A DNA stretch of 16,685 bases from Promethearchaeati archaeon (GTDB taxonomy: Archaea; Asgardarchaeota; Heimdallarchaeia; JABLTI01). The notes below the pieces were generated by a model. The model was given only the letters and a program-made list of their open reading frames with translations. It was not told the DNA's origin and did not search any database. The stretch is taken from positions 1 to 16,685 of the forward strand of contig JABLTI010000060.1 in the NCBI GenBank assembly GCA_013166835.1, written 5' to 3'. How positions within the stretch are numbered: position 1 is the first letter of the stretch; the number at the start of each line of letters is the position of its first letter. The position numbers were made by a program, and so were the translations under genes. Positions 1 through 16,685 of the stretch are shown piece by piece.

Positions 1-1298
1 TTGTCATAATCACTTCTAGGTATAAAGAAAAAGTATCCAGTTTCTATTTTTCTTGATCCTCTTTTCGGGTCATCAGGGTGTAATGGTATATCTCTAACTC
101 TTTTTTCAGATAAACCAACAACAAACAAGATAACAGGGTCAGGAACAAAGAAATACCTATTTGAACTTGAATCTATGAGTTTTCTATTTGTTGCTGAAAT
201 TAAACTCCAATCAATATTTGTTGGTTGAGTTGTCATGCCAACTTCTAATGCAATTTGCTTTATTGTTTCGGGTATAATACCTCTTTTCTTCAGTCCTTTA
301 ATAGTCACTAATCTGATATCATCCCAACCCTCGACTTTTCCTTCCTCAACTAATGGGATTATTTTACGTTTAGAAGCTGGACTACCAATAACGTTGAATC
401 TTGCATAATGGAATATGTGTGGTTGTGGTAATAATCCAAGTAATTCCCTTATTTTATTTTGTAATTCTATTCTGGTATCAAATTCTGCACTTCGACCGAC
501 ATGAGTTATTCCACATATTTTATCCTCAATCGCATTTGCAAAATCATACAAAGGCCAAACATTATACTTTCGATTTTGTAGGCAATGAGCATCTTTTCTA
601 ATTGCCAAAATTGCTGGATCACGCATAACTGCATTTTGACTTTGCATATCACCTCTTAACCGCAGGACTATCACACCTTCTCCATACTCACCTTTCAACA
701 TTTTATTCCATTCTTTCATGATTGCATCTGGTTTCTTCTTTGCATGTTCACATGATTGCATCTTTGAACGTAAATCTCTCATTGTTTCAACAGAACAAAT
801 GCAAGTATATGCTTGTCCTTTTTTGATTAATTCTTCTGCTTTTTCATAGAAAATGGGAATATCATTTGACACAATTACTTCTTTACTAGGAGTAAGTCCT
901 AGCCATTCTAGAGATTCTCGATGAGCTTCATAATACTTGATTTCTGCTTGTTTCGGATTAGTATCCTCGAATCTTAGAATAAAGGATCCATCGTATCGAT
1001 TAGCGTAATGATGAGCGAAAAATGCTGTATAGGCATGCCCTAAATGCATTTCACCATTAGGTTCTGGGGCATATCTTGTAACAACTTTTCCTTTTATAGC
1101 ATCTTTTAGTGGAGGTAATTCTCTTACTTTCTTTTCGGTCACTTTTCTCTCGAGGAATTCAGGAGCTATTTTGGTCAATTTCTCAATTTGAGCATCTAAA
1201 GATAACTCATTGAGAGAAGGGATTAGTTCTTCGATAAGATCATTTACCTTCTTTGAATGTGGTCTCATATCTACATGAGTTGCCATGATTTTTTGCAT
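1..1298 (-). CDS. gltX: Glutamyl-tRNA synthetase, archaeal/eukaryotic type. Partial: the C-terminus runs off the left window edge. The start is uncertain; the first in-frame ATG is at 1296-1298, but homology continues up to 1382.
   Basis: Hand translation of the minus strand (not in the ORF track because it has no stop in the window). It gives ...KKIKDLIQKYGLENAIKHNGKANDKAVMQKIMA... (the N-terminal helical domain typical of archaeal GluRS), then VVTRYAPEPNGEMHLGHA (HIGH-type motif), ILRFEDTNP, and WPLYDFANAIED. The frame was verified at positions 1035-1052 and 1296-1385. Confidence 0.85.
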   Translation of the reverse strand, partial: MQKIMATHVDMRPHSKKVNDLIEELIPSLNELSLDAQIEKLTKIAPEFLERKVTEKKVRELPPLKDAIKGKVVTRYAPEPNGEMHLGHAYTAFFAHHYANRYDGSFILRFEDTNPKQAEIKYYEAHRESLEWLGLTPSKEVIVSNDIPIFYEKAEELIKKGQAYTCICSVETMRDLRSKMQSCEHAKKKPDAIMKEWNKMLKGEYGEGVIVLRLRGDMQSQNAVMRDPAILAIRKDAHCLQNRKYNVWPLYDFANAIEDKICGITHVGRSAEFDTRIELQNKIRELLGLLPQPHIFHYARFNVIGSPASKRKIIPLVEEGKVEGWDDIRLVTIKGLKKRGIIPETIKQIALEVGMTTQPTNIDWSLISATNRKLIDSSSNRYFFVPDPVILFVVGLSEKRVRDIPLHPDDPKRGSRKIETGYFFFIPRSDYD

Positions 1299-1549
1299 TA
1301 CTGCTTTATCATTTGCTTTACCATTATGCTTGATTGCGTTTTCTAGACCGTATTTTTGAATTAAATCTTTGATTTTTTTCTCTACATTATCTGACAAAGT
1401 TTGACCATTCCTTTTTTTCGAGTTTGTGTTATCAAAAATCGATATTAATGAATATTTAAAGTATTCTTCTGATTAAGCTATCAAAATAGATTCTTATAAA
1501 TGAACTGCTAAAAAATAAGAAAAAAGAAAGTTATACTCAAGAGCACAAA

Positions 1550-2242
1550 TCATTTCTTCTTCAAAATTATCCGAGCATCTACTCCAAAAACGCCATCTTC
1601 ATTAGCGATTATTGGGTTAAGATCAATTTCTTTAATGTAATCTTCTAAATCAATTGCTAATTTCGAAACCTTTACTATCATCTCAGCTAATGCATCTCTA
1701 TTTACAGGCGGTAATCCTCTGAATCCATTGAGCATTTTTTGTGTTTTTATTTCATTAATCATTCGTAGAGCTCGTTCTTTTGTTGTAGGACACAACCTAA
1801 ATGTTACATCGCTAATTATTTCAACCAATACTCCACCGATTCCAAATGCAACTACTGGACCAAAGGTAGGATCAATATTCATACCAATTATTAATTCAGT
1901 TCCTTTCTTCACTTGTTTCTCAATTAGAATGCCCACCAAATCATATTTTGCGAGTCTTTTTTTCATATCGTCAAACTTTGCTTTCAGATCACTATCATCA
2001 TTTATTCCAATAACAACTGCTTTGTAATCTGATTTGTGCAAGATTTTTGATGACATGGCTTTTATAACAACAGGATATCCAACTTTCTTTGCGAAGGTTA
2101 ATGCTTCCTTAGTATTGTTCACTAATGCATTGGGTGGAAATGTTATACCTACACTTTCAAAGATTTTCAAAGCTTCATGTTCTAGAAGAAAATCTCTGCC
2201 TTCTTTGTATGCTACATCTATTGATTTACTATCAATTTTCAT
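1550..2242 (-). CDS. acdB: ADP-forming acetyl-CoA synthetase (acetate-CoA ligase, ADP-forming), beta subunit (ATP-grasp domain)
   Basis: 230 aa, matching the size and sequence pattern of Pyrococcus-type ACD beta (LLEHEALKIF..., GYPVVIKA, IDLNPI). It lies 14 nt downstream of the alpha subunit. An AAGGTGA Shine-Dalgarno-like element precedes the ATG. Confidence 0.85.
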   Translation of the reverse strand: MKIDSKSIDVAYKEGRDFLLEHEALKIFESVGITFPPNALVNNTKEALTFAKKVGYPVVIKAMSSKILHKSDYKAVVIGINDDSDLKAKFDDMKKRLAKYDLVGILIEKQVKKGTELIIGMNIDPTFGPVVAFGIGGVLVEIISDVTFRLCPTTKERALRMINEIKTQKMLNGFRGLPPVNRDALAEMIVKVSKLAIDLEDYIKEIDLNPIIANEDGVFGVDARIILKKK

Positions 2243-2256
2243 TTCTCTTTCACCTT

Positions 2257-3684
2257 CTACTTTGGAATCTCTCTTATGATTGGCAGCTTTTGTCCGTGAT
2301 CCCGGAGATAGTCTGCATACTCAGTTAGTTTATCTATCCCATAGATTGCTCTTGCAGGAGTGGGATAAAATGGAAAGTTCATTTGTTCTAATTCTTCTCG
2401 AATATAAACCGCTTCTGCTCCACCAAGAGCGCAAAAAGTGATGGTTTTGTTCATTGTTTTCGCGTAGGGTTTCAATCCTTCCATTAGGTCTTTCACGTTG
2501 ATTGCTGGAGGTGTTGGAATGATAATATATGTTATAGAATCAATATTAGGATCATCCTTCGTTTGCTCTAAAGAGTAAATGTACTCTTTTGCTGTTGCAC
2601 TTCCAGTTAAATCAATTGGATTTTCAACAGAGAAAAATGCAGGTAAGTCCTCCTTCATCTTATTGTGAATGGTGGGAGATATTTTCGCTAATTCTAAACC
2701 TAATTCACCAACGGAATCAGAAGCCATAACTCCAGCTCCTCCTCCATCAGTAATTATTAGAACTCGATTTCCTTCGGGTAACAAAGAACTATTGAAAGCA
2801 ACCATACAATCAAATAATTCGTCCCAAGTATACACACGTATAATTCCTGCTTCTCTAAATAAAGCGTCAGTTACAGCATCATTTGCAGCAAGAGAAGCTG
2901 TATGACTAGCAACTGCTTGAGCTCCTGCTTTGTTTCGGTTTGCTTTTATCGCTATGATTGGTTTCTTCAAAGAAACTTTTCTCGCAGCTTCTATGAATCT
3001 TTTTCCTTCATTAAAACCTTCCAAGTAAGCCAGAATAATTTTTGTTTCAGGATCATCTCCGAAATATTCTAAGATGTCTGCTTCATTGATGTCCGAGGCA
3101 TTCCCATAGCTAACGAATTTTGATAGGTAGTTACCATTCCCAAGAGTACCCATAATATCTAGAAATGCGGATCCAAAAGCACCACTTTGTGTAAGAATAG
3201 ATATACCGCCATTTTTAGGTCTTGTCAATTTACTTTCAGGCAAAAAGACCATATCAATTCCCCTTTTGGGATAAAAAAGCCCAATACAATTTGGACCAAC
3301 TATTCTAATGTTGTTTTCCTTGGCGATTTCATCAATTCGTTTTTGAAGATTCTTCCCTTCTTCGCCAATCTCCTTAAATCCGCCGGTGATTATTACAACG
3401 GATTTTATTCCCTTTTTAGCACAATCCTCAATAGAAGAAGGTACGTATTTTGCTGGTACAATAATTACGGCTTCTTCTACTGGATCATCAAAATCAAGCA
3501 CTGATTTGTACACGGGTTGTCCTAGAATTTCTCCTCCTTTAGGATTTATCAGATACGTTTTACCTTCAAAATTCTTTATGAAATTCTCTGCAATCACATA
3601 ACCTGGTTTATCAGTAGCAGATGAAGCACCAAAAATTGCTATGCTTTTCGCTTCGAAAAAGCTTTGTAACGGGTTTTTAACCAT
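2257..3684 (-). CDS. acdA: ADP-forming acetyl-CoA synthetase, alpha subunit (CoA-binding and succinyl-CoA-synthetase-like domains)
   Basis: 475 aa, colinear with my recalled P. furiosus AcdA sequence. Matches include FEAKSIAIFGAS..KPGY, VIIVPAKYVP, the phosphohistidine loop AVASHTASLA, and LIITDGGGAGVMA. Confidence 0.9.
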   Translation of the reverse strand: MVKNPLQSFFEAKSIAIFGASSATDKPGYVIAENFIKNFEGKTYLINPKGGEILGQPVYKSVLDFDDPVEEAVIIVPAKYVPSSIEDCAKKGIKSVVIITGGFKEIGEEGKNLQKRIDEIAKENNIRIVGPNCIGLFYPKRGIDMVFLPESKLTRPKNGGISILTQSGAFGSAFLDIMGTLGNGNYLSKFVSYGNASDINEADILEYFGDDPETKIILAYLEGFNEGKRFIEAARKVSLKKPIIAIKANRNKAGAQAVASHTASLAANDAVTDALFREAGIIRVYTWDELFDCMVAFNSSLLPEGNRVLIITDGGGAGVMASDSVGELGLELAKISPTIHNKMKEDLPAFFSVENPIDLTGSATAKEYIYSLEQTKDDPNIDSITYIIIPTPPAINVKDLMEGLKPYAKTMNKTITFCALGGAEAVYIREELEQMNFPFYPTPARAIYGIDKLTEYADYLRDHGQKLPIIREIPK

Positions 3685-3943
3685 TTTTATTATACACTCA
3701 CAGTGGTAATAATTCTAAACTTTCAGCTAAATTTATCTTCCCGTTCCATTATTTTTTTATCTCTTTTAAGACTTTTTGAGAGTAGGTAATAGTTCTGGAA
3801 TATTTCATGTGTTATTTTTCCTTAAATTAATTCTTTTGGTGAACCCTCTCTATTATCAACACCTTTAGGTTTGGAAACAAATTTTTGAGATTATCCAATA
3901 AAGTATATGAGTGTAAATTGTTAATATTCGGTAGTGATGGCAG

Positions 3944-4747
3944 ATGAATGAAGTAATTCAAGCTTTAGAGAAAATAAGAAAGGAGTTCAAAGGAAAAGTA
4001 GGAGAAAATGCGGGAATTATTATTGGTGAGGATTGGTTACATAAATCGAAAACAAAAATTAAGAAATGTATAATCTCAGCAAGGCTTACACGTAAAGTTG
4101 TTGCTACTGCTGCTAAAGAAGATGTTCAATTAATCATTACTATTTTTCCACCAATTTTTACTCAAGGGAGTCATAGGAAAATCAGTAAAGAACACCTTGA
4201 CCTATTAAAGATTTTATTAGAGAATAGCATAAGTGTTTATTCTCTTGGCGAGGATTGGTTGAACACAGAAAATGGTGGATTTGATTATCTATTAAATCTT
4301 CTCGATTTCCAATATACATCACCTTTGGTTATAGAGTATCAAAACAAACATAAGAATAACGAAAAGAAAACTGGTCGATTGGGTGAACGAAAAAAGAAAA
4401 TCTTATATAATGAATTACTAGAATTACTCAGACAACACATTAGTAATGATTTACGTTATTTAGGGTATAGTCAAGCTAAGGTGCAAAAAATAGCTTTCTT
4501 CTATGAAATTAGGAATGAATTAATGGAAATCGTAAATGAGCTCAATTTGGATGTTCTTCTTGTTGGTGAAGCAACTTATGAGGGATTACTTACAGCTCAA
4601 CTCCAAAAAACACCAACAGTGATTTTAGAAAAAAGAAATCTTGAGAATGCTGTTCTTGCTAGTATAAGAAGAAAATTGATGGAAGAAGTTGCAGTTGACC
4701 TTCCAGAAATAATTATTCTGAAACAGGATAAAATAGGAACAAATTGA
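3944..4747 (+). CDS. NIF3 (YbgI/DUF34)-fold protein with the conserved metal-binding histidines substituted
   Basis: 267 aa, colinear by eye with E. coli YbgI. LIITIFPPIF aligns with AVIVHHGYFW, SVYSLGEDWLNTENGGFDYLLNLL with [25 protein letters not shown], and DVLLVGEATYE...ILEKRNLE with DAFITGEVSE...AAGHHATE. Confidence 0.55.
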   Translation: MNEVIQALEKIRKEFKGKVGENAGIIIGEDWLHKSKTKIKKCIISARLTRKVVATAAKEDVQLIITIFPPIFTQGSHRKISKEHLDLLKILLENSISVYSLGEDWLNTENGGFDYLLNLLDFQYTSPLVIEYQNKHKNNEKKTGRLGERKKKILYNELLELLRQHISNDLRYLGYSQAKVQKIAFFYEIRNELMEIVNELNLDVLLVGEATYEGLLTAQLQKTPTVILEKRNLENAVLASIRRKLMEEVAVDLPEIIILKQDKIGTN

Positions 4748-4761
4748 AATTTTACTTGTTT

Positions 4762-5673
4762 CTAATCAACTGCTTTCTGTAGCACTTCTACAATTTGATC
4801 TGTTTCAATTAGCATTTGTCCTAATCTGGGTCTTCTTTTGCTTAACCCAATAAAGACACAATTTTCATTAACTGCTTTGAAAACCATGAAGCTCTTCTTT
4901 TTCATTTGTAAAATCGTAGAGCTGACTTCATCATCTTGATCGAGTTCATCTGAAATTCTACTAACAGAATCCAACATCACATTAGCAGCAATTTCAACAA
5001 TTTGAGGTAATTCGCCTGCATCGTAAATTGGTAATCCATCTTTAGAGTAAACTGCCACGCCTAAGAATGACGAACCTCGGAGAGAACGTTTAAGGAATTG
5101 CTTAATGGGAATTTGATCATCCACTTCCTTCATTAAGACATCCTTAAAAGCATAAAAAGTAGAGGCGTCGTAGATACTGGTTTCATGTATAATAACCTCT
5201 GATCCTTCATCTATGAACAAATTCTTTGTAGCTCGAATATAATCGGAAATATTTTCTTGCTCTGCCATTTTATCGATTTTGTTCAATAGTAAGTAAATTC
5301 TAGCATCAGAACTGAATTTTCGTAAATGTTTCACTAGAGCATCAAACCAATATTTTGCCATTGAAAACTTTGATTGTTCGTTTATATCCAATACGAAAAC
5401 TAGAGCTTCGACGTGTTTGTATATCGGATCACGGTCACTTGAAATCACGTCTTGAATTGAATACTCACCACCGCATCTCACAACGAGAACTTTCCTTTGC
5501 AAAAGATCTCTCATTGTATTCCCAACATCAAGCTTTTCCATAACAGCTTTTAGTTCTGTAGGAGGAGTATTATCAACAACAACTGCTTTTATTGTTCGTA
5601 AACCGGCTCCGGGAAGACCGGCAATAAGTATCTTTTTTGGTTCTTCTTCATAAGTCGACAAGGAACTCACCAA
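4762..5673 (-). CDS. Rag/Gtr1-family small GTPase-like protein with a C-terminal roadblock/LC7 domain. G1 and G3 motifs are degenerate. The start is non-ATG (TTG at 5671-5673 or GTG at 5668-5670).
   Basis: By-eye alignment to human RagA. KKILIAGLPGAGLRT aligns with KKVLLMGKSGSGKTS, VVRCGGE with LWDCGGQ, LLLNKID with CLVHKMD, and ETSIYDASTFYAF with RTSIWDETLYKAW. The C-terminal about 115 aa (FLGVAVYSKDGLPIYDAG...VFIGLSKRRPRLGQM) has the roadblock/MglB pattern. Total length of 303 aa is close to Rag proteins. Confidence 0.75.
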   Translation of the reverse strand: MVSSLSTYEEEPKKILIAGLPGAGLRTIKAVVVDNTPPTELKAVMEKLDVGNTMRDLLQRKVLVVRCGGEYSIQDVISSDRDPIYKHVEALVFVLDINEQSKFSMAKYWFDALVKHLRKFSSDARIYLLLNKIDKMAEQENISDYIRATKNLFIDEGSEVIIHETSIYDASTFYAFKDVLMKEVDDQIPIKQFLKRSLRGSSFLGVAVYSKDGLPIYDAGELPQIVEIAANVMLDSVSRISDELDQDDEVSSTILQMKKKSFMVFKAVNENCVFIGLSKRRPRLGQMLIETDQIVEVLQKAVD

Positions 5674-5723
5674 GCCAAAATTAAGCTAACTTTCTTACTG
5701 TTATAGCGTTAAGCTAAAAAAAG

Positions 5724-5784
5724 ATTTGTGAAAAGGAAAAAGAAAACGAAAAGAAAAACAGGTGTTCAGCTACTAGAGCTGAAC
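5724..5784 (-). terminator. Putative terminator downstream of the ESCRT-III gene: a perfect 8-bp hairpin followed by repeated oligo-T tracts
   Basis: GTTCAGCT (5764-5771) and AGCTGAAC (5777-5784) pair around a 5-nt loop, starting 15 nt past the stop at 5799-5801. On the minus strand it is followed by CCTGTTTTTCTTTTCGTTTTCTTTTTCCTTTTC. Oligo-T tracts are the known archaeal termination signal. Confidence 0.4.
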
Positions 5785-5798
5785 TTTAAGAAAAACAA

Positions 5799-6407
5799 TT
5801 ATTCCTTATCTTCTCGAAGTTTTTCTATTTCTTTGGCTAATTCTGTAGAACGAATATCTGGAGTTGGTAAACCTGTTTCAGCACCAAGACCGATTTCAGT
5901 GCCAATTTCGCCCATGATTTTATCAACTTCAGTTTCATCAACATCGAGGGACATCATGTTTTCAAAATCTTCATCCATCATATCAGTTGTCATTTCGATG
6001 CCTTCGAATGAATTTTCAAGGTCCTCAACTAATGCAGAAATTTCAGGAGCGTTCAAACTCGCATTTACTTCTCGTAAAGCGCCAGCCATTCCTTTCAATT
6101 CCCCTGCTAATTGCTGGACAGAATCAGCTTGCTCTAATCTAAAAATAATGCCTTCAATTCTTGTTGTGAGTCGAGTGTAACTGTACACCCATTTTCTATT
6201 TCTAGCCACATTTGAGGCATATAATCTTGCTTGATCCATTAAGCCTTTTCTCATTGCATCTCGAGTCTTTCTTTGCAATTTCTGCTCATCAGTTTCAAGC
6301 TTCTTAGAAGATCGAGCTAGTCGTTTATTAACCATTTTGAGATCGATGATATAATCTCTAGTATTTTTTCCGCCACCTAGCCATCTGACAAATTTTCCGA
6401 ATACCAT
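5799..6407 (-). CDS. ESCRT-III family protein of the CHMP1/Did2 (Vps2/24/46, ESCRT-IIIB) type, with a C-terminal MIM1-like helix
   Basis: 202 aa, colinear by eye with human CHMP1B. DLKMVNKRLARSSKKLETDEQKLQRKTRDAMRKGLMDQARLYASNVARNRK aligns with [51 protein letters not shown], and EISALVEDLENSFEGIEMTTDMMDE with KISALMDKFEHQFETLDVQTQQMED. The C-terminal ELAKEIEKLRE aligns with ELSQRLARLRD. Confidence 0.85.
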   Translation of the reverse strand: MVFGKFVRWLGGGKNTRDYIIDLKMVNKRLARSSKKLETDEQKLQRKTRDAMRKGLMDQARLYASNVARNRKWVYSYTRLTTRIEGIIFRLEQADSVQQLAGELKGMAGALREVNASLNAPEISALVEDLENSFEGIEMTTDMMDEDFENMMSLDVDETEVDKIMGEIGTEIGLGAETGLPTPDIRSTELAKEIEKLREDKE

Positions 6408-6637
6408 TTTTTTTCTAACCTACTTTTTTCTTTTAACAAATAACAATACTTTCACTAAAAAAAAGCTTTCTTAATTGACTATTTATTACATCGATTTTTC
6501 TAAGCTTTTCTTAGTTCTATGACCTATTCTAAAATATATTTTATAAACAGTATATTTTTATCTTTGTATTCAGACCAAACTGTTTAGGAAAAGGCTGGAT
6601 ACGTAATTGGGATGAGTATTAGTTCAAATAAACAAAA

Positions 6638-7549
6638 ATGAACTACTTGAAAAAATACTATAAGAAAACCCTTTTAGCATTGTTTTCTCTTTTACTATAT
6701 ATCAAAATTATTGGAGCTTTTACAAAAATGGTCAAGCCAGGTTCTATTATCGGTGGTTTTGTTATTGCGCTTTCTGTAGCAATTCAGGTTATCACTCTGG
6801 TAGAGATCGCTCATTACTATTGGTTATTATTCATTTGGGTAGCCGGACTTATTGCAGGTGTCACGTATGTTTTAGGGGGAATGGCATTTGACACAGATAA
6901 AATGGAGTATTATACTACCTCAGGTATCAGTCTTGGTGCTATAGGTGCACTTACAGCTTATTTCGCTCTCTTTCAAGGTGAATCAATTTTCTATTCCTTG
7001 ACTGATCTTATTCCCGCGAATCAATCAATAATGGTTGGATGGACTTTTGGTGCGATTGGATTATCAACCATTGCATCATTTCTCGTGGCAATAGCACCTT
7101 TATTCATAGTAGCTGGTGCGGGGAAGCAACTGAAAGGAGTTAAACCAGGTGCAATAATTGGTGGCATTCTTATTTGTGGCTCTTTAGCTTTGCAAGTTAT
7201 TACTGTTGTTCATTTTGCTCATTATTATTGGCTCCTTGTTTTCTGGTTCATTGGTTTACTTGGTGCAATATCCCTTGCTATTGGTGCCCGTTCTAAATGG
7301 GGATACAGTAGTACAGAAGCTTTAGTTACCGCTGGAGTTTTTATTGGCATCTTATTAGTACTGGTTATTTGGTGGACTGTTTCTCCACAAATGATAGGTA
7401 ATATACTTGCGAAAACAACCACAGTTACAAATCCTCTGGGATCAGGTAATATGCCAGCTATTCTGCCGACAGTCTTCTCGTTTGTTGCTGGTGTTGTAGG
7501 CTTCTTTGGAATCCTATTTTGCGCGGCTTCTGATAAGCGAAGATTTTAA
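6638..7549 (+). CDS. Polytopic integral membrane protein of unknown function, with an internal tandem duplication
   Basis: 303 aa, almost entirely hydrophobic segments. A conserved block VKPG[SA]IIGG...QVIT.V..AHYYWLL..W..GL occurs twice. A T-rich tract follows the stop. Confidence 0.7.
   Translation: MNYLKKYYKKTLLALFSLLLYIKIIGAFTKMVKPGSIIGGFVIALSVAIQVITLVEIAHYYWLLFIWVAGLIAGVTYVLGGMAFDTDKMEYYTTSGISLGAIGALTAYFALFQGESIFYSLTDLIPANQSIMVGWTFGAIGLSTIASFLVAIAPLFIVAGAGKQLKGVKPGAIIGGILICGSLALQVITVVHFAHYYWLLVFWFIGLLGAISLAIGARSKWGYSSTEALVTAGVFIGILLVLVIWWTVSPQMIGNILAKTTTVTNPLGSGNMPAILPTVFSFVAGVVGFFGILFCAASDKRRF
6731..7285 (+). repeat. Intragenic duplication: repeat cores at 6731-6877 and 7139-7285 encode homologous membrane modules of about 49 aa
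   Basis: By-eye alignment of aa 32-80 against aa 168-216 gives about 27 identical positions of 49. The DNA copies have diverged mostly at synonymous or conservative positions, so the duplication is old and not an assembly artefact. Confidence 0.7.
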
Positions 7550-7689
7550 TCTTCACTTTTTTTCTTTTATTTTTGATTTTTCTTGTTTCCAGTTTGCTAA
7601 TTTAACAAAGGTCTTAAAAGGAATCCGAATTTATCACATACGTATTATTTATTACACAATCTTTGTTAGGAATTGCGTGAGGAAAAGAA

Positions 7690-8202
7690 GTGACAAAAAA
7701 CATTGAGTATCAATTCGAGTATGGTTGCCTTGGTGGTACATTTGATAGATTACATGGTGGACATAAACTTCTATTAGAAGTAGCATTTAAACTTGCTAAA
7801 AAAGTGCTAATCGGTATAACAACAGATAATTTTGCTAAAAAAGGGAAAGAAATTCCTGAACTTATTTGGAATTTTGAGAAACGTGCTAAAGATGTAACTG
7901 ATTTTCTCCACTCTCTTGGTGTTTCTGATAATCGCATTGATATCAAACCTCTTTCTCGAGCAACGCAATATGCAGATGAAATTCCAGAAATTGGAGTTAT
8001 TGTCCTTAGTCCAGAGACTTATGGCAGGTTATTGGAAATCAATGATGTCAGAAGGAAAAATGGTTTGGAGGAACTTATAGCAATCGCTATTCCTTATCAT
8101 AGAGATGAAAGTGGCAGGATTGTAAGCTCAAAAACCTTCAGAGAACTCGAGGTAAAACTCGAACAACAAAAGAAGCAGAAAGATGATGATGCTTCTTTAT
8201 AG
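7690..8202 (+). CDS. coaD: Phosphopantetheine adenylyltransferase, archaeal type (cytidylyltransferase superfamily), GTG start
   Basis: It carries the nucleotidyltransferase signature GGTFDRLHGGH. At 170 aa it is colinear with my recalled Pyrococcus abyssi PPAT (VVVGGTFDRLHLGHKALL..., IVVSEETY...). A GAGG element lies about 8 nt upstream of the GTG. Confidence 0.8.
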   Translation: MTKNIEYQFEYGCLGGTFDRLHGGHKLLLEVAFKLAKKVLIGITTDNFAKKGKEIPELIWNFEKRAKDVTDFLHSLGVSDNRIDIKPLSRATQYADEIPEIGVIVLSPETYGRLLEINDVRRKNGLEELIAIAIPYHRDESGRIVSSKTFRELEVKLEQQKKQKDDDASL

Positions 8203-8215
8203 GTTTTCTATTCCA

Positions 8216-10936
8216 CTAAAAGAAATCATCTAAAGAACGAATACCTATTATTTTATCAAAAGAAATTCCTATAGGATCAAGTACTTGGGTTAATGTTGAA
8301 TCCATTTGTGCTAAATATTTGTCAGTATCAATCTCACTTACTTCTGCGAGTTCTATAGGTTTAACGCCCTCTGATCCTTTTGTCTTAACATAAGAAATGA
8401 GATCACCTGCACCTAATTCAACACCTTTTTTCTCAACTAATAATCTAGCGGCTTTCACATGTTGAGGTGTTGTTTTCACATATTGATCTAAATTCTTGTT
8501 TAACTGCACTCGGAATTGCAATTCCACAATCGATAATTGACGTTTCTTTAGTTTGGAATAAATATCTTGAACAATATCTTCGATACGGTTCTTTGCTGAA
8601 TCTATGTCATCTTCTGATTTTATTTCACTGAGAATTCCAACGATACTATTAAAGAGATTTTTCAAAAATGGAGGAGTGTTTCTTTTCTTACCAAGGAGTC
8701 CTTTTACATCTACGTTGCCATCGTGATAAACTCCCAGGTAGTTTTTCTTTCGGTCTGAAAGAGCTAGATATCTGTATGTTTTATCTACATCGAGATCAAT
8801 TTTTAGCTCCTCATCACTCCATTTAATTAGTTCTTTTATTTGCTCTTGCTTCGGATTCTTTAGGAAAACGGAATCTGTATCCCCATAGATTACTGATACA
8901 CCCATTTCATTACATTTTTCTATTGTCTTTGTGATTGCTTCACGACCAATAGCTGTAGTAGCTTCTGCTAGTGGGGGGCAATAAAATGGAAAATGAGAAG
9001 CTCCAAATACCCCGTAAGAAGCGTTAATTACGACTTTAAGAGCTGATTGGATTACTTCATAGAAATTCCTTGTAGGTTGATCAAGAGACGTATCCTTTGT
9101 TTTAGGTTTAAACCACGAAACTCGAATATCTCTAATGAATCCAACTAAAATTGACATTAATCCTGCATTTTTTGTGCAAACCCAGTGCTCTGTATCTGGA
9201 ATTAGTTTCTTATTTTTACATTCTGCATGGGTGCAATTCATAGTTTCATATGATAAATTCCAAATCTTAATGATAGTTGGGTACAGACTTGCAAAGTCTA
9301 ATACTGTTACCTCAAAATGAATTCCGGGATCTGGATTTACAACTATTGCTCCTTTGTATTTTTTACCTTTTATCATTGCATCTGTTGTTGAATCCCCTCG
9401 AGACCCTATGATTTCTTCAGGTCGAGGAATCAAGTATGCTCTTCTTCGATGCTCAGCAAAAAGCCAATTCCTAACCCAACTTGAAACTGATTGCCTAGTA
9501 ATATCTTCAATAGTCATTCCAGTTAAACGCATTAAAAGTATAATAAGTCGCATTGTTACTGAATCATTAAATGTTGTTAGTTCGAGGGTTAATTTACTAT
9601 CAATGAAATTGTATTCAGCAAGTGTATAACAATCTAAAAAGCCGATTTCTTTTTCTAAAGTAATTTTATTACTCCCAAGTAAAGCACTACTTACTGCGTT
9701 CAAGGAGCTTTCACTATATTTGGAACCAAAAGCGTAAACCTTTATTGCTGCTTGATTAAAGAACCGATAAGCATCTAAATGAATTGAATTTCTTATTTTA
9801 CAGCTGTCTCGCACTACTAAAATTGGGTTTTCTTTTCGATTTATCTTTAATAATTCAGCTCTGTTAAAGAGATATGGTAAATCATAATTGTCACCATTGT
9901 AGGTTATGATTATTGGATAGGTTTGCATTAGTTTGAAAGTTTCACGAATCAGTTCTACTTCATCATCAAAGAATTGAATTTCAACATCCTCTGATAAATT
10001 CTTAGAACGAGTTCCCATTGGAACATCAGCTCTTTTCAAAGTGAAGACTTTTTTCAAACCATCATTTCCGGCAAAAGCTACAGAGATGACCTTCTCATTT
10101 GCTTTCTTTGGATCTACTAAATGAGTCATATCTGGAGTATAAACTTCAATATCAATTGCTGCTCGTTTTATATGAGGAATTCTTGTTAATAGCAGAGGAA
10201 GATATTGGGGAATTAATTCTGTAACTTCTTTTGGAGAATCTTTAAAGAGTTCAAGAATTTGTTTTTCAACCACTTTTTCGATTTTTGGAAAAGCCGGTTC
10301 TAAATTTCCCTCTTTAATTTGATAATACATGCCCGGAACCAATAACCGGTCATAGAGATAATTTTGATGATATCTAATATTTGCTTCCCACGCTGCAGGT
10401 AGTTTATCTCTTAGACTGTCAAAACCACCAGCAATAGCAAGGGGATCTGTTACACTTATTTTCGTCATTTGGATGTCTTTATCAGTCAACAGATTTCTAA
10501 GTTTGAGGGATTCATAACCAGTTATTTTTGAAAAATTCTTAATAGGGGAAATTTGTTTTAACTCAGTTTCCGATAAATCTGAAAGGCAATAGGGTTTATG
10601 GTTTGTGTTATCATACCAACCATATAATTTGTTTGAATGCTCATCAAGTAAATAGAGAAAAGCTTTCCCACTTTTCCCATCGTATACAGATTGTAAAAGA
10701 CATAGTGGGGGAGTATTTATTGGGCAATGTTCTACTGGTGCTCCTTCAAAGATTACATCCTCGTCTTCATCTTGTGTTTTATCGAATTCATCAATGACAT
10801 CATTATCATTTTCAGCAATTTGTGATGTTTCTGCAGCTGGTTTGGCACCTGTTTTTTCCTTCTCTGCTTTAGGTTTTTCTTTCTTCTCTTTCTCTTCGGG
10901 AAGGAAAGCATCTAAAGAGGACTGTTTTTTTGCCAT
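8216..10936 (-). CDS. polB: Family B DNA polymerase with a lysine/glutamate-rich N-terminal extension
   Basis: Exonuclease motifs are present: AIDIEV (Exo I), YNGDNYDLPYL (Exo II) and YNFIDSKLTLEL (Exo III). Polymerase motifs are present: DFASLYPTII (A), KVVINASYGVFG (B) and YGDTDS (C). Motif spacing is contiguous, so no intein is apparent. Confidence 0.95.
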   Translation of the reverse strand: MAKKQSSLDAFLPEEKEKKEKPKAEKEKTGAKPAAETSQIAENDNDVIDEFDKTQDEDEDVIFEGAPVEHCPINTPPLCLLQSVYDGKSGKAFLYLLDEHSNKLYGWYDNTNHKPYCLSDLSETELKQISPIKNFSKITGYESLKLRNLLTDKDIQMTKISVTDPLAIAGGFDSLRDKLPAAWEANIRYHQNYLYDRLLVPGMYYQIKEGNLEPAFPKIEKVVEKQILELFKDSPKEVTELIPQYLPLLLTRIPHIKRAAIDIEVYTPDMTHLVDPKKANEKVISVAFAGNDGLKKVFTLKRADVPMGTRSKNLSEDVEIQFFDDEVELIRETFKLMQTYPIIITYNGDNYDLPYLFNRAELLKINRKENPILVVRDSCKIRNSIHLDAYRFFNQAAIKVYAFGSKYSESSLNAVSSALLGSNKITLEKEIGFLDCYTLAEYNFIDSKLTLELTTFNDSVTMRLIILLMRLTGMTIEDITRQSVSSWVRNWLFAEHRRRAYLIPRPEEIIGSRGDSTTDAMIKGKKYKGAIVVNPDPGIHFEVTVLDFASLYPTIIKIWNLSYETMNCTHAECKNKKLIPDTEHWVCTKNAGLMSILVGFIRDIRVSWFKPKTKDTSLDQPTRNFYEVIQSALKVVINASYGVFGASHFPFYCPPLAEATTAIGREAITKTIEKCNEMGVSVIYGDTDSVFLKNPKQEQIKELIKWSDEELKIDLDVDKTYRYLALSDRKKNYLGVYHDGNVDVKGLLGKKRNTPPFLKNLFNSIVGILSEIKSEDDIDSAKNRIEDIVQDIYSKLKKRQLSIVELQFRVQLNKNLDQYVKTTPQHVKAARLLVEKKGVELGAGDLISYVKTKGSEGVKPIELAEVSEIDTDKYLAQMDSTLTQVLDPIGISFDKIIGIRSLDDFF

Positions 10937-11143
10937 GCATTACCCTCAAATTCTTACAATATTCCACAATTCATCTTTATATGATTATTATCGGTATTTT
11001 TCGCTACATTTAGACTTGTTCATCGAACTATTAAGCTTTATTCTTAGCTAATTTTACTAATCAAAGTATTTCATTATATACTTATTAATCTCTTGAGAGT
11101 GTGGAGCTTTTATTATTTAATGCATACTCACTCTTGAGTTTTA

Positions 11144-11416
11144 ATGACTAGTAACAATTCGGATAATTCTGCTGTCGGATTTATTGTATTAATATCATTT
11201 GCAGTTCTTGCTCTAATACCTCTGGCAATAGGATTTGATAGTTTCGAAGAGTTATTTCGAGTTGGGAAAATAATTCTTATTGTGGTACTTGTTATTGCGG
11301 TAGTTGCTGGGGCTATCTTTGGTTACCTTTTCTATAAAAGAAAGATTGGAAAAAGAAATGCAAAGAAAGAAAAAAATTCAAATGAAAATTTGAATCAAAA
11401 AAACAAGGAAATATAA
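11144..11416 (+). CDS. Small membrane protein (two predicted TM helices, basic C-terminal tail), hypothetical. It may continue in the -1 frame to 11526.
   Basis: 90 aa. Hydrophobic stretches are GFIVLISFAVLALIPLAIGF and IILIVVLVIAVVAGAIFGYLF, followed by KRKIGKRNAKKEK. I recognised no homolog. Confidence 0.5.
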   Translation: MTSNNSDNSAVGFIVLISFAVLALIPLAIGFDSFEELFRVGKIILIVVLVIAVVAGAIFGYLFYKRKIGKRNAKKEKNSNENLNQKNKEI

Positions 11417-11569
11417 CAAAAATTCATGAAAAGAGAAATTCTGAAGAAATTAAGATCGTTGAACCAATATTTGAGGAAACAGATGAGCTAGTTGAAGAGC
11501 CACTAACTAAACCTTTGAAGAATTAGGTTTCGAATTCGAGATGGAGTTGGAGGAATCTTATTATTTCAG

Positions 11570-12646
11570 ATGAGGTTATTTAGGTTACTAGTTTCTTCGT
11601 TGGTGATAAAAATTAATGTCAAACAAAAAGAAATTTCTCATGGATTAATTCGGTTTTTCAAAGATACAAAACCAAAGATACTAAATACCAAAATACTAAA
11701 CTTGAATGAAATATCTGCGGGTTGGGAGACTGAGTTATATACTTTCGAAATGCAATTTTCTGAAAATGATGGAATTAAAAAGAAAAAGCTCGTTATTCGA
11801 ATGTATCCAGGGAATTCTGCTGAAAGAAAATTAACAAATGAATTCTTTATTTACAAAAATTTAAGCAAACAAAATTATCCTGTTCCAAAAATTCACTATA
11901 TATCAACTGAAAAGCAATATATTGGAAAGCCATTTCTTATTATGGACTGGATTCCAGGTGGTACTTTAGATCAGAAGTTAAGTTCTCAGCCCGAGGAAAC
12001 TTTTAGATTATTCTGTCAGCTTTTTGTTGATCTACATAAACTGGATTGGAAACCATTTCTTAAGAACCAAAATTTAGAAAAAAACTCTATATCACAAATT
12101 GATATTTATCTCGATTCACTTGAAAATAGAGTCAAACAGTTTGAATTAACAGAACTTGAACCAATTTTAATATGGTTGAGAGGTGAAAGAAATAGAATAG
12201 AAAACGAATATTTAGCTCTTGGACATTACGATTTTCATACATTTAATATACTTTTGAATGATAATGGAGAACCATTTGTAATTGATTGGCCTTCTGCGAA
12301 AGTAAATGATTTTCGCTTTGATTTAGGATGGACTTTAACTCTATATAGAGTTTATGGGAATCGTGAAAATAGAAATACTCTTTTTGAAACATATCAAGAA
12401 ATAGCAGGAAAGCAAATTGAACATATGGATTTCTTTGAGGTATCAGCGATACTACGTCGCCTTAGTGATATTCTTGGAACACTCAAATCTAGTGACGAAA
12501 GTACAGGATTACGTAACGGTGTTGCTCAAATGATCAAGGATAGTATTTCGCATGTGGAGAATCTTAATTCCTACCTTGAAGAATTGTCAAGTATTAGAAT
12601 ATTGAAAGTTGACGAGTTAATTGAAAATATAAAAAATAGTGATTAG
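11570..12646 (+). CDS. Phosphotransferase-family kinase (aminoglycoside phosphotransferase / choline-kinase-like fold); substrate unknown
   Basis: The Brenner-type catalytic motif is HYDFHTFNILL (HxDxxxxN). The downstream metal-binding segment is VIDWPSAKVNDFRFDLG. The N-lobe-like segment is ISAGWETELYTF...LVIRMYP. The start could be an internal in-frame GTG at 11603. Confidence 0.75.
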   Translation: MRLFRLLVSSLVIKINVKQKEISHGLIRFFKDTKPKILNTKILNLNEISAGWETELYTFEMQFSENDGIKKKKLVIRMYPGNSAERKLTNEFFIYKNLSKQNYPVPKIHYISTEKQYIGKPFLIMDWIPGGTLDQKLSSQPEETFRLFCQLFVDLHKLDWKPFLKNQNLEKNSISQIDIYLDSLENRVKQFELTELEPILIWLRGERNRIENEYLALGHYDFHTFNILLNDNGEPFVIDWPSAKVNDFRFDLGWTLTLYRVYGNRENRNTLFETYQEIAGKQIEHMDFFEVSAILRRLSDILGTLKSSDESTGLRNGVAQMIKDSISHVENLNSYLEELSSIRILKVDELIENIKNSD

Positions 12647-12718
12647 CTGAGCAATTCAACTAAGATTATGTTTTTAAATTTCGAAAGAGAGTAAGAAAGT
12701 TGCTTTCTTGGAAAAGAA

Positions 12719-12735
12719 CGAAAATATTATAAAGC
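12719..12735 (+). promoter_or_regulatory. Candidate archaeal BRE/TATA element for the tRNA-Asp gene
   Basis: CGAAAATATTATAAAGC lies about 35-50 nt upstream of the mature tRNA 5' end, which would imply a short leader removed by RNase P. The call rests on sequence pattern only. Confidence 0.3.
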
Positions 12736-12768
12736 AGAAACATTCGAAACAATCAGCAAATCTTTTTT

Positions 12769-12846
12769 GCCCTGATAGTGTAGTACGGCCTATCATCTTC
12801 GGCTGTCACCCGATGGACGCGGGTTCGAATCCCGCTCGGGGCGCCA
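12769..12846 (+). tRNA. tRNA-Asp (anticodon GUC), with genomically encoded 3' CCA
   Basis: Hand-folded cloverleaf. Acceptor stem GCCCTGA/TCGGGGC, discriminator G and CCA. D arm GTGT-AGTACGGCCTA-TCAT, as in archaeal tRNA-Asp. Anticodon stem TTCGG/CCGAT with loop CTGTCAC. T arm GCGGG-TTCGAAT-CCCGC. A TTTTTT tract follows. Confidence 0.9.
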
Positions 12847-12924
12847 TTTTTTCATTTTTATCTATAGATTATTTCGCATGTGTTTTTTCAAATTTAAAAC
12901 TGCTATCTTAAAATTTAAGAAATA

Positions 12925-13659
12925 CTAGATTTGCAATTTTCGTTGTAATTTTGTATTCTTCATTAATCTATAGTGTATATACAACAAGAATCCACCAATT
13001 ACAATTGTGGATGCTAGAACATATAGGGACCAACTTACACCAAATGATCCTCTGATATAACTTGTTACTATGAAATCAATCCCAAGGCAGATTAATCCAG
13101 TACCGAAGAGAATGAATGCTGCTATGTTCAGACCCTTATTTTTGATCTTTATGGATCCAATTATTACAAGTGCAGCAATGACAGCTACTACTGCTTCAAT
13201 GGGTAATCCTACTTGTAAGAACCAATTAATTTGTCCATCTTCAATTTTGTCAATCACAAGTAAGAATATTGCTGGTGGGAGAGTTTCACCAATATATAGA
13301 AGTGGTAGTATATTTGGGAACAGCAATGGTGCTGATATTACAAACCATGCTAGGATTAGAGATGATATTGGGTATAATGACCAAGTAACTGTTTTAGTAA
13401 CGATAAGATCAATGAAGAGAGTGATCAGTAAGGGAATTAATAATGTTACACTAACGACTTCCCATGCGAAGATTCTTTTTTGTTTTGTAGTTCTACCTAT
13501 TTTTTCTGTTTTAACTGCAGGTTCATCTGGATATTTCTTGACATAATCAGTTGGTTCTTCATCTGTTTGTTGGATAGATGTCCCACATAGTGGGCATTTT
13601 GTTTTGTGTGGTTCAACTTCTACCCCACATCTACTGCAGAAGGCTTTGTTTTCTGTCAA
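12925..13659 (-). CDS. Zinc-ribbon-containing polytopic membrane protein, hypothetical
   Basis: The N-terminal C4 ribbon is CSRCGVEVEPHKTKCPLCG. It is followed by a charged linker and about 5-6 hydrophobic helices. The start lies 13 nt downstream of the acyltransferase stop, on the same strand. Confidence 0.65.
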   Translation of the reverse strand: MTENKAFCSRCGVEVEPHKTKCPLCGTSIQQTDEEPTDYVKKYPDEPAVKTEKIGRTTKQKRIFAWEVVSVTLLIPLLITLFIDLIVTKTVTWSLYPISSLILAWFVISAPLLFPNILPLLYIGETLPPAIFLLVIDKIEDGQINWFLQVGLPIEAVVAVIAALVIIGSIKIKNKGLNIAAFILFGTGLICLGIDFIVTSYIRGSFGVSWSLYVLASTIVIGGFLLYIHYRLMKNTKLQRKLQI

Positions 13660-13672
13660 TTATTCACTACTC

Positions 13673-15013
13673 CTAATTTGTTTCAATTCTAACTTGAATT
13701 CCATCTTTTACTAGTTTTCTAAAGAACAATTTTTCTACATGGGCTTCCTTTATTATTCTTCCAAAATTAATGTAAAGATTCTCACCATAACTATTTACTG
13801 CGCATCCTGTTTTTGTTACCGGACTTTGTGCGGAGAGGAATTGTATGTTCTCAACTTCTTTATTTAATGGTTCTGGTAATGATACTTTGCCGAGATTTGT
13901 GATTACTCCTGAATACAAGAATTCTCCTTGACCATTATAAATTATTTTTCCGAATAATCTTTTTATGAACAATGGTGTTAAACGAATTAATGGATGCAAT
14001 TCCCCTCTTACATTCCTTGCTATTTGTTGACTTATGTACCTATCAGAAACTTCTACTCGCATATAATGGTAAACTTGTTTCAATATTTCATCAAAAGAAA
14101 AGTGTCCTAATCTAGGATCAATAGATGGTGTTACATATAGGGAAAAATTTCTCATGGTTTTTGAGGGGAAGAATCTTCGTAGATTTACTGGAACCTGTAA
14201 TCGAATTGGCTTAAGTAGTCTCTTTTGTTTTCTTAATGGTAAACTGAACAATATATCTTGTAATGCTTCTAGATAAACAGCAACTAAATATTCAGTTAAT
14301 GTTGCATTCAATTCTTTTGATTTATTGAGTGCTTGTTTAATTGGCATAACGCCTATTGTTAGGTGAAAAACCCCTTTTGGTTCTAATTTGTATGGTATGT
14401 GAAAAGCTTTAGAAACTCTAGGTGGTCCAGGTAAATTTTTTTGATAATTTTTTTTGAATGCATCCTCATATTCCTCATAATGAGGTTCTTGGTTAGATCT
14501 GAAGATATCTTGCCAATCATTCACTACTAAGCCAGTTAAATTAAGATACTCCCCAACAAGCGATTTTAGAAAGATTAACGCACCAGTTCCATCCGTAATA
14601 CTATGGTGAAATTCAACAGAAATTCGATTGTAATATGCTCTAACTCGAAAAGGAAATATGCTTTTTTTTCTTATAGGCATTTCTTGACAGGGATATTTTG
14701 TTTCTTCAATGACAACTGGTATACCAGGATTTGTTTCCCAATACGACCAAAAAAGACCATTTCTTAGATTTACTTTGTAATATGGAAATCTATCTATTAT
14801 ATTTTCGAGCGCTTGCTGCAAAATTGCTGCATTTATTGGTTTTTTTAGATTAGCAAATATTCTAAACATACATGGTATCCTTGCTGATGTAACGAAGGAA
14901 AATACTGTTGCCGCATTATCTAATCTAAACCAATCTTCTTTGGGTGCTTTTTGTATATGGTTTTGATTTGACTTCTCATCTGTTTTTTTTATTTGAAAAT
15001 TACTAGAATTCAT
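13673..15013 (-). CDS. HHxxxDG-motif acyltransferase (condensation-domain / CAT / alcohol-acetyltransferase / WS-DGAT-like superfamily)
   Basis: 446 aa. The catalytic signature FHHSITDGTG is at aa 135-144 (HHSITDG = nt 14588-14608). The N-terminal WFRLDNAATVF...ILQQALENIIDRFPYYKVNL resembles bacterial proteins annotated as alcohol acetyltransferase or condensation-domain proteins. Confidence 0.7.
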   Translation of the reverse strand: MNSSNFQIKKTDEKSNQNHIQKAPKEDWFRLDNAATVFSFVTSARIPCMFRIFANLKKPINAAILQQALENIIDRFPYYKVNLRNGLFWSYWETNPGIPVVIEETKYPCQEMPIRKKSIFPFRVRAYYNRISVEFHHSITDGTGALIFLKSLVGEYLNLTGLVVNDWQDIFRSNQEPHYEEYEDAFKKNYQKNLPGPPRVSKAFHIPYKLEPKGVFHLTIGVMPIKQALNKSKELNATLTEYLVAVYLEALQDILFSLPLRKQKRLLKPIRLQVPVNLRRFFPSKTMRNFSLYVTPSIDPRLGHFSFDEILKQVYHYMRVEVSDRYISQQIARNVRGELHPLIRLTPLFIKRLFGKIIYNGQGEFLYSGVITNLGKVSLPEPLNKEVENIQFLSAQSPVTKTGCAVNSYGENLYINFGRIIKEAHVEKLFFRKLVKDGIQVRIETN

Positions 15014-15123
15014 TGAATTGCATCCATTGCGTCTACAAATTTCTTACAACCAAGGAAAATAAGTTAATGCTATAATTAGTAGGTATCCATCCTACCCAAA
15101 CAATTAGTAAAAGGAAAAAATGT

Positions 15124-15963: not shown

Positions 15964-16012
15964 AATTGTTATCTTTCCCTTGAAACCGTTTATTATTTCA
16001 AATTAAAAAGAA

Positions 16013-16627: not shown

Positions 16628-16685
16628 TACCTTACCCTTATTTCCAATAGAGGATTTCTCTTTTATGTTTTACGGCACTCGGAAA

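Follow-up and report, generated by a model that had tools for sequence, protein, structure and literature searches.

Eukaryotic Rag/Gtr GTPases (RagA/B, RagC/D, Gtr1 and Gtr2) are proteins of about 300 residues in which a G domain is followed by a roadblock domain, and both eukaryotic paralogs keep the G1 motif GxxxxGK[ST], the switch-I Thr and the G3 motif DxxGQ. Asgard archaea are already known to encode Rag/Gtr-like GTPases with roadblock or longin domains (PMC10933270; RagGtr clade, bioRxiv 10.1101/2024.02.28.582541), a numerous group whose functions are unknown (PMC10933270), and the solved Loki proteins LokiRagO (PDB 8yl2) and LokiRagM (PDB 8zla and 9m28) have been deposited bound to GTP or GDP. 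Here we describe a gene of the same family from Promethearchaeati archaeon (Heimdallarchaeia, JABLTI01; assembly GCA_013166835.1), on the reverse strand of contig JABLTI010000060.1, of which positions 1 to 16,685 (the window) were analysed. Its product shares family, architecture and phylum with the Asgard Rag-like proteins, and family, domain order and length with the eukaryotic ones; unlike either, it carries a conserved but degenerate active site and its gene adjoins one for an ESCRT-III protein. An annotation made earlier from the letters of the window alone (the original prediction) had described a Rag/Gtr-type protein with replaced catalytic residues, and had suggested that it might be a pseudoGTPase and the regulatory half of a heterodimer.

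The window protein is a member of the Rag/Gtr family that combines a G domain with a C-terminal roadblock fold. It matches the Pfam profile Gtr1_RagA (PF04670) with E=1e-22 and 81.1 bits (cut-off 22) over residues 14-202, and the same profile is matched by 30/30 orthologs (best 2.4e-27); these 30 are the full-length members among 40 relatives, of 56-93% identity, found in a protein search space of 5.8 billion, and their alignment underlies the ortholog counts given below. The Arf profile, in contrast, reaches 24.4 bits on the window protein against 81 bits for Gtr1_RagA, and the top structural matches are all Rag/Gtr, which argues against membership of the Arf/Arl/SAR group. Human RagA (2.6e-12) and yeast Gtr1 (6e-12) are the best matches in a sequence search of the PDB, the window protein being nearer by sequence to human RagA than to the Loki proteins 8yl2 and 8zla (about 1e-3 to 3e-4). 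A gap-free HMMER alignment with RagA, covering residues 12-199, sets GKSGSGKTS against GLPGAGLRT, DCGGQ against RCGGE, HKMD against NKID and TSIWD against TSIYD. The family strings to which the original prediction had pointed, xCGG[QE] and TSIYDxxxYxAF, are thus present, the second in the general form TSI[YWF]D..[YF].A, and CGG[QE], [HN]KxD and TSI[YWF]D are common to the window protein and its eukaryotic relatives.

Structural comparison leads to the same assignment. An AlphaFold2 model built on the 30 orthologs (mean predicted local distance difference test score, pLDDT, 77.8) comprises a Ras-like alpha/beta domain and then an alpha-beta-beta-alpha-beta-beta-beta-alpha module. When this monomer is compared with the PDB by Foldseek, RagA, RagC, Gtr1 and Gtr2 chains come out on top (E about 1e-15), followed by the Asgard structures 8yl2, 8zla and 9m28 (E about 1e-11 to 1e-13). 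The isolated G domain matches the nucleotide-binding domain of RagC (PDB 3llu) with a template-modelling (TM) score of 0.69, and the isolated C-terminal module matches MglB with TM 0.74-0.78 and E about 1e-7. Full-length matches to Rag/Gtr chains also cover the C-terminal domain, their whole-chain TM score being low (about 0.4) because the relative orientation of the two domains differs in the monomer model. The sequence signal of the roadblock domain is faint: Pfam Robl_LC7 gives a sub-threshold match at residues 203-267 (E=0.013), and reaches E<=0.1 in 14/30 orthologs (best 4e-4). Rather than placing the N-terminal domain in some non-Rag family, the profile and structure searches therefore uphold both the Rag/Gtr assignment and the two-domain architecture originally proposed. 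Weak matches to DUF2119, an uncharacterised archaeal Pfam family, were also recorded in 14/30 orthologs (best 2e-4).

In GTPases the beta- and gamma-phosphates are bound by the P-loop Lys, which is the main phosphate ligand of P-loop nucleoside triphosphatases. Mg2+ is held by the Ser/Thr of the P-loop and the Thr of switch I, and through water by the G3 Asp, whilst the catalytic water is positioned by the Gln of G3. Each of these five residues is replaced in the window protein, so that the combination of GxxxxGK[ST], switch-I Thr and DxxGQ that marks the Rag/Gtr family is absent. Codon arithmetic places G1, G3 and G4 exactly where the original prediction had put them, and the RagA alignment together with the 30 orthologs confirms that the Lys and Ser/Thr of the P-loop and the Asp of G3 have been lost beside an intact NKID; the degeneration goes further than had been noticed, with Lys or Arg for the switch-I Thr and Glu or Asp for the catalytic Gln. 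Across the orthologs the P-loop Lys position is occupied by Leu in 23, Val in five, Ile in one and Met in one, and by Lys in none; the P-loop Ser/Thr position (26) by Arg in 15, Lys in nine, Gln in three, Ser in two and Thr in one; the switch-I Thr position (47, aligned against canonical relatives and RagA) by Lys in 27 and Arg in three; the G3 Asp position (66) by Arg in 20, Pro in four, Lys in three, Gln in two and Asp in one; and the catalytic Gln position by Glu in 15, Asp in 14 and Asn in one. Canonical motifs do not reappear in these relatives (P-loop Lys in 0/30, G3 Asp in 1/30), and of the Leu/Arg/Arg pattern first read in the window protein it is the loss of Lys that holds throughout (30/30), Arg itself being found in 15/30 at position 26 and in 20/30 at position 66.

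Other parts of the nucleotide site are kept. Gly19, Gly24 and Thr27 of the P-loop, the CGG of G3, the Lys and Asp of the G4 motif [NH]KxD, and Glu164 and Thr165 of G5 are invariant in all 30 orthologs, in an alignment in which 55/303 columns are invariant overall, and Ser166 and Ile167 of G5 are each kept in 27/30. The guanine-recognition elements typical of Rag/Gtr proteins (G4 [HN]KxD and G5 TSI[WYF]D) are therefore represented, as NKID and ETSIYD.

The degenerate active site is conserved and selected, and reflects real biology. Pairwise ratios of nonsynonymous to synonymous substitution rates (dN/dS) are 0.07-0.15 at dS 0.16-1.3, no frameshift or internal stop was found in any ortholog copy compared, and the same degenerate motifs are carried by the Rag-like protein of a rearranged locus (L026). 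Sequencing error or strain noise can be dismissed given these dN/dS values and the recurrence of the substitutions in 30 orthologs and independent assemblies, and a decaying pseudogene is likewise ruled out by intact frames at all loci, recurrent substitutions and the same dN/dS values. Two routes by which a functional lysine might have been hidden were also rejected, namely a one-residue register shift that would make R26-T27 a working 'K-T' (position 26 is Ser, Thr or Gln in 6/30), and compensation by Lys29, which aligns with an Arg also found in canonical RagA. Since purifying selection and recurrence in orthologs support the pseudoGTPase reading first suggested, we regard the window protein as very probably a conserved Rag-family pseudoGTPase, in which hydrolysis would have been lost. 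Conventional Mg2+-GTP binding and hydrolysis, and with them conventional GTP switching, appear very unlikely, because every one of the five residues related to phosphate, Mg2+ and catalysis is replaced.

The gene itself is read as follows. The open reading frame at 4762-5673 (reverse strand) encodes 303 residues counted from a TTG, with an in-frame stop (taa) immediately 5' of it, and its first in-frame ATG is Met45. A non-ATG start, as had been proposed, is borne out, with a refinement: the initiation codon is most likely the TTG at 5659-5661 (codon 5 of the frame), giving a product of about 299 residues that begins MSTYEEEPKK. This codon is preferred because its arrangement with a Shine-Dalgarno-like GGTGA, which lies 5 nt ahead of it, is conserved across orthologous loci; GGTG[AG] followed after 5-6 nt by TTG (mostly) or ATG, giving 'MS...', is found in 13/16 of the loci compared. 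Met45 was rejected as the start, as the G1 region 5' of it is conserved, as are the Shine-Dalgarno and start arrangement at codon 5. A conserved TTG start would fit a regulator of low abundance.

The pseudoGTPases stand apart from other Rag-like proteins. When 1.84 billion cluster representatives were searched exhaustively with a profile, they were represented by one 50%-identity cluster with a score of 566 bits; the next full-length match, a Hodarchaeales protein (P0044) with the P-loop GTAKAGKT, scored 157 bits and is 28% identical. Nearly all of the best 150 representatives outside the clade possess GxxxxGK[ST], the switch-I Thr and DxGGQ, and the near-universality of GxxxxGK[ST] in these distant relatives identifies the window protein, on the evidence of these searches, as part of a compact, isolated pseudoGTPase clade confined to metagenome-assembled genomes (MAGs) of Heimdallarchaeota. 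The named proteins among the 40 relatives are nearly all labelled Heimdallarchaeota or 'Asgard group', with one labelled Thorarchaeota and one Bathyarchaeia. A locus attributed to a 'Candidatus Bathyarchaeia archaeon' MAG (L017, DATKZI010000036.1) has identities to the window equal to those of the Heimdall-type contig Ga0307379_10000021, and probably represents a mislabelled or mis-binned Heimdall contig. The clade thus differs from the described Asgard RagGtr-like proteins in being tight, isolated and at most 28% identical to its nearest canonical relative, as well as in its degenerate site and its ESCRT-III neighbour.

Loss of the P-loop Lys also occurs in a few unrelated Rag-like lineages, among them P0100 (GMT), P0111 and P0166 (GTT), P0179 (GVS), and P0103 and P0108 (GRS); P0107 and P0175 are further Lys-less representatives, and GRN is among the variants listed. 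The switch-I Thr and DxGGQ are retained in P0100, P0111 and P0166, whereas P0179, P0103 and P0108 have G2 or G3 motifs that are partly degenerate. Such loss seems, from these sequences, to have been repeated within the Rag-like family.

Comparison with other described systems brings out what is particular to this clade. With MglA/MglB, a polarity module of bacteria, it has in common a roadblock fold that works with a Ras-like G domain, and MglA likewise lacks the G3 Asp; in that system, however, the G domain, which is active as a GTPase in MglA, and the roadblock belong to two different proteins, whereas the profile matched by the window protein is Gtr1_RagA. PseudoGTPases have been described elsewhere, among them the pG domains of p190RhoGAP (PMC5593906) and degenerate septins (PMC10731463). 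The pseudoGTPase domain of AAGAB (psGD), assigned to class i, has lost G4 and G5, does not bind nucleotide, and binds a partner of longin/roadblock fold (PMC12490416). Like AAGAB, the window protein has a GTPase fold kept under selection with its catalytic motifs lost, the domain serving in AAGAB as a protein-interaction module (PMC12490416), and the class i hallmark of a GTPase fold without catalytic residues is evident; unlike AAGAB, the window clade keeps G4 and G5 invariant, which argues against its being a class i pseudoGTPase.

In eukaryotes the Rag/Gtr proteins belong to a Ragulator/EGO or TOR context, which is absent at the window locus; instead, an ESCRT-III gene adjoins. The product of this neighbour matches human CHMP1B over nearly its full length (2e-21), CHMP1A (1e-12), CHMP2A (5e-12) and CHMP3 (3e-9), against 0.04 for a Vps20/32/60-type chain, values that place it by sequence in the CHMP1/Vps2-24-46 class of ESCRT-III. 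Its C-terminus (STELAKEIEKLRED) resembles the consensus of MIM1-type Vps4-binding motifs and is a candidate for one; neither Vps4 nor further ESCRT genes were found within the window. Across genomes the ESCRT-III protein is 83-100% identical, compared with 69-95% for family-B DNA polymerase (PolB), 56-96% for the Rag-like protein and 35-92% for NIF3.

Wherever a locus includes upstream sequence, the ESCRT-III gene immediately precedes the Rag-like gene in the same direction, at a spacing of about 110-250 bp, and look-ups that started from the ESCRT-III proteins (P0224, P0222 and P0218) recovered the Rag-like gene each time. The ESCRT-III relatives obtained by the word-indexed search are all at least 82% identical, and the evidence for linkage covers this clade. 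The pairing has also survived rearrangement: at L026 deoxyhypusine synthase and CinA take the place of NIF3 and the acetyl-CoA synthetase genes on the downstream side, at L037 the genes for the membrane protein, the cytidylyltransferase and PolB on the upstream side are swapped for others, and at L038/L039 the same three are swapped for another set that includes a RAMP gene. It is the only neighbour pairing kept through all three flank replacements. At L038/L039 (positions 2181-3988, two assemblies) the genes immediately upstream of the ESCRT-III gene are a CRISPR-associated RAMP gene, a MazE-like gene and a LAGLIDADG-containing open reading frame.

Two elements lie in the spacer between the genes. 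Just past the ESCRT-III stop is a terminator-like hairpin, followed by a T-rich tract, with a folding energy of -11 kcal/mol (z=-3.3); its GTTCAGC/GCTGAAC stem, with variable loops, occurs at 8/14 other loci (9/15 with the window). It is the sequence of the stem, and not merely its structure, that is conserved. Closer to the Rag-like gene is an A/T-rich box, variants of which (most commonly (C/G)CA(C/A)AAAT(C/A)TTTTTGAAG) are readable in the spacer of 15/15 loci, the rearranged L026 included. No Rfam family matches the spacer. We infer that the hairpin would terminate transcription of the ESCRT-III gene and that the box may serve the Rag-like gene as a promoter element, and a single operon with the ESCRT-III gene is doubtful with both elements intervening.

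From these observations we propose that the window protein is a lineage-specific Rag/Gtr pseudoGTPase that would act as a non-cycling adaptor together with the adjacent ESCRT-III protein, a reading to which, taken as a whole, we assign a probability of roughly 0.55. The shape of the pocket would be preserved, and a guanine-containing ligand might still be recognised, given that G4, G5 and the glycines of the P-loop have been retained; the protein would nevertheless be permanently 'locked', its frozen G domain offering a constitutive surface for partner binding and its roadblock domain a surface for dimerisation or a platform, as such domains do in Rag, MglB and Ragulator proteins. The invariant pairing with a highly conserved ESCRT-III gene suggests joint action with the CHMP1-like protein in membrane remodelling, for instance by recruiting it, positioning it or limiting its polymerisation. 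A functional link between the two proteins, considered separately, is tentative, and we would put it a little below even odds.

Several points weigh against this proposal and in favour of other explanations. In most loci the whole block from PolB through cytidylyltransferase, membrane protein, ESCRT-III, Rag-like gene and NIF3 to acetyl-CoA synthetase is syntenic, so that adjacency alone is weak evidence, and since every genome with the pair falls within a single Heimdall clade of moderate divergence (PolB 69-95%) and extensive synteny, the adjacency could in part be inherited rather than selected. Independent flank rearrangements are of three kinds only, and the closest canonical relatives, those of Hodarchaeales, are not adjacent to ESCRT-III. 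The ESCRT-III and Rag-like genes probably do not form one obligate transcript, because the terminator-like hairpin and a separate upstream box sit between them, and they evolve at very different rates (83-100% against 56-96% identity). On such grounds the protein could be a conserved pseudoGTPase of some unrelated process that has merely inherited its position next to ESCRT-III; we consider this unlikely, though to be taken seriously, as the pair alone among the neighbours outlasts all three flank replacements and its orientation and spacing are maintained.

The nature of the pocket is the other matter on which the proposal may be questioned. The AlphaFold2 model has a pLDDT of only about 60 across the switch-I and interswitch region; without the P-loop Lys, nucleotides bind less tightly, but binding is not always abolished; and intact G4 and G5 motifs argue, at the level of sequence, against a simple nucleotide-free scaffold. 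The protein might then be a working nucleotide sensor or switch, in which the basic residues R/K26, K/R47 and R/K66 replace Mg2+ and neutralise the phosphates, so that a guanine ligand is bound without Mg2+, with or without slow hydrolysis. The replacements are indeed patterned, the Lys position being aliphatic, the three Mg2+-related positions mostly or always basic and the Gln position acidic in 29/30, and the Lys and Asp of G4, the Glu-Thr of G5, the P-loop glycines and Thr27 have stayed invariant where only 55/303 columns have. However, position 26 is Ser, Thr or Gln in 6/30 and position 66 is Pro, Gln or Asp in 7/30, from which it follows that basic residues are not strictly required; the main phosphate ligand is gone with no evident substitute, Lys29 aligning with an Arg of RagA; and the G4 and G5 residues have structural roles too. 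We therefore hold a functioning Mg2+-free sensor to be highly doubtful. Two readings of the pocket are left, an empty or collapsed pocket in a locked scaffold and a Mg2+-independent sensor of a guanine ligand, and between them we favour the non-cycling adaptor. A bolder version, in which this would be the first Rag-family pseudoGTPase with a charge-swapped pocket that binds a guanine ligand without Mg2+ and serves as a dedicated regulator or adaptor of the CHMP1-like ESCRT-III polymer, strikes us as improbable.

The heterodimer suggested in the original prediction did not find support in the neighbourhoods examined. If the window protein were the inactive regulatory half of such a pair, a canonical partner encoded elsewhere would join it by way of the roadblock domains, and the live subunit would be tuned or scaffolded by the dead one; a loose analogy exists in the IRGM 'GMS' proteins, which have Met for the P-loop Lys and regulate canonical IRG GTPases. 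The protein does belong to the Rag/Gtr family and does possess a roadblock dimerisation domain, and its nearest canonical relatives, in Hodarchaeales, occur as tandem Rag-like pairs and in a five-gene array. In one of these loci (L023, positions 1-14915) five Gtr1_RagA genes lie within 15 kb around a 1026-residue HEAT/TPR protein, and in another (L021, positions 5656-7939) a tandem Rag-like pair precedes a small HATPase_c (histidine-kinase-like) gene, with a Ras/Roc-response-regulator fusion nearby. A Rag-like gene pair of MK-D1 is moreover predicted to heterodimerise (Tran et al. 2024, PMC10933270). In contrast to these cases and to the eukaryotic Rag/Gtr proteins, no paralogous partner is near the window gene: a second Gtr1_RagA or Robl_LC7 gene was found neither in the window nor within about 8 kb at more than ten orthologous loci. 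The canonical relative closest to the window protein belongs to another order and shares only 28% identity with it, and the solved Loki Rag-like proteins are described in their depositions as a homotetramer and a monomer, so that heterodimerisation is not a general Asgard property. It is possible that a partner is encoded elsewhere in the genome; on balance, we judge a role as half of a heterodimer to be distinctly unlikely.

Ideas on the origin of eukaryotic membrane trafficking give a central place to the small GTPases and ESCRT proteins of Asgard archaea, and the locus offers a concrete pair, a strongly conserved Rag-family member without switch chemistry and a near-invariant CHMP1-like ESCRT-III gene. 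Should the two proteins interact, Rag/roadblock modules would already have been adaptors for membrane-remodelling polymers in archaea, and a Rag-type member would be added to the pseudoGTPases; should they not, the clade would still be a natural experiment on the Rag fold without GTP hydrolysis. Were the charge-swapped ESCRT-III regulator to prove true, Rag/roadblock signalling would have been linked directly to ESCRT-III remodelling before eukaryotes. In the searchable literature, which is incomplete, we found no description of a Rag-family or Asgard pseudoGTPase, nor of a Rag-like/ESCRT-III gene pair, and the words 'Rag' and 'roadblock' occur nowhere in the text of an ESCRT survey (PMC11188069).

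Table 1. Coordinates of the Rag-like gene, its motifs and the other features of the window
Feature	Position	Strand	Basis or remark
Rag/Gtr-like pseudoGTPase coding sequence (putative), about 299 residues	4762..5661	-	refined TTG start; maximal frame reaches 5673; Pfam Gtr1_RagA 1e-22; dN/dS 0.07-0.15
Shine-Dalgarno-like GGTGA	5667..5671	-	13/16 orthologous loci
G domain, Rag/Gtr type (residues about 12-187)	5113..5640	-	Gtr1_RagA profile, RagA alignment, 3llu TM 0.69
Roadblock/LC7-fold domain (residues about 190-302)	4768..5106	-	AlphaFold2 secondary structure, Foldseek MglB, weak Robl_LC7
Degenerate G1/P-loop GLPGAGLRT (G19-T27); Lys to Leu, Ser/Thr to Arg	5593..5619	-	codon arithmetic, RagA alignment
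Lys47 at the switch-I (G2) Mg2+-binding Thr position	5533..5535	-	aligned with the 'AT' Thr of canonical relatives and RagA
Degenerate G3 RCGGE (R66-E70); Asp to Arg, catalytic Gln to Glu	5464..5478	-	codon arithmetic, RagA alignment
Intact G4 guanine-specificity motif NKID (N131-D134)	5272..5283	-	[NH]KxD; Lys and Asp 30/30
G5 region ETSI (TSIYD...YxAF)	5173..5184	-	E164 and T165 invariant; aligned to RagA TSIWD
A/T-rich box CACAAATCTTTTT, some 45-70 nt ahead of the start	5718..5730	-	conserved; candidate promoter element for the Rag-like gene
Terminator-like hairpin GTTCAGCT-ctagt-AGCTGAAC with T-rich tract, just past the ESCRT-III stop	5764..5784	-	terminator scan
CHMP1B-like ESCRT-III (Snf7 family) gene, 202 residues	5799..6407	-	Pfam Snf7 1.3e-19; human CHMP1B 2e-21
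Partial open reading frame, at least 490 residues, running off the window end; probable Glx-tRNA synthetase	1-1549	-	synteny
Two ADP-forming acetyl-CoA synthetase subunits	1550-3684	-	
NIF3	3944-4747	+	
Polytopic membrane protein, 303 residues	6638-7549	+	no Pfam match
Cytidylyltransferase	7690-8202	+	
Family-B DNA polymerase	8216-10936	-	
APH-type kinase	11570-12646	+	
tRNA-Asp(GTC)	12769-12846	+	sole Rfam match in the window
Open reading frame, 204 residues	16013-16627	-	no Pfam match

Amongst the remaining genes of the window (Table 1), the membrane protein that is divergent from the ESCRT-III gene lies near the pair in most loci, L026 included, and is lost in L037-L039. It contains an internal duplication, in which KMVKPGSIIGGFVIALS...HYYWLLFIW is repeated as KGVKPGAIIGGILICGS...HYYWLLVFW.

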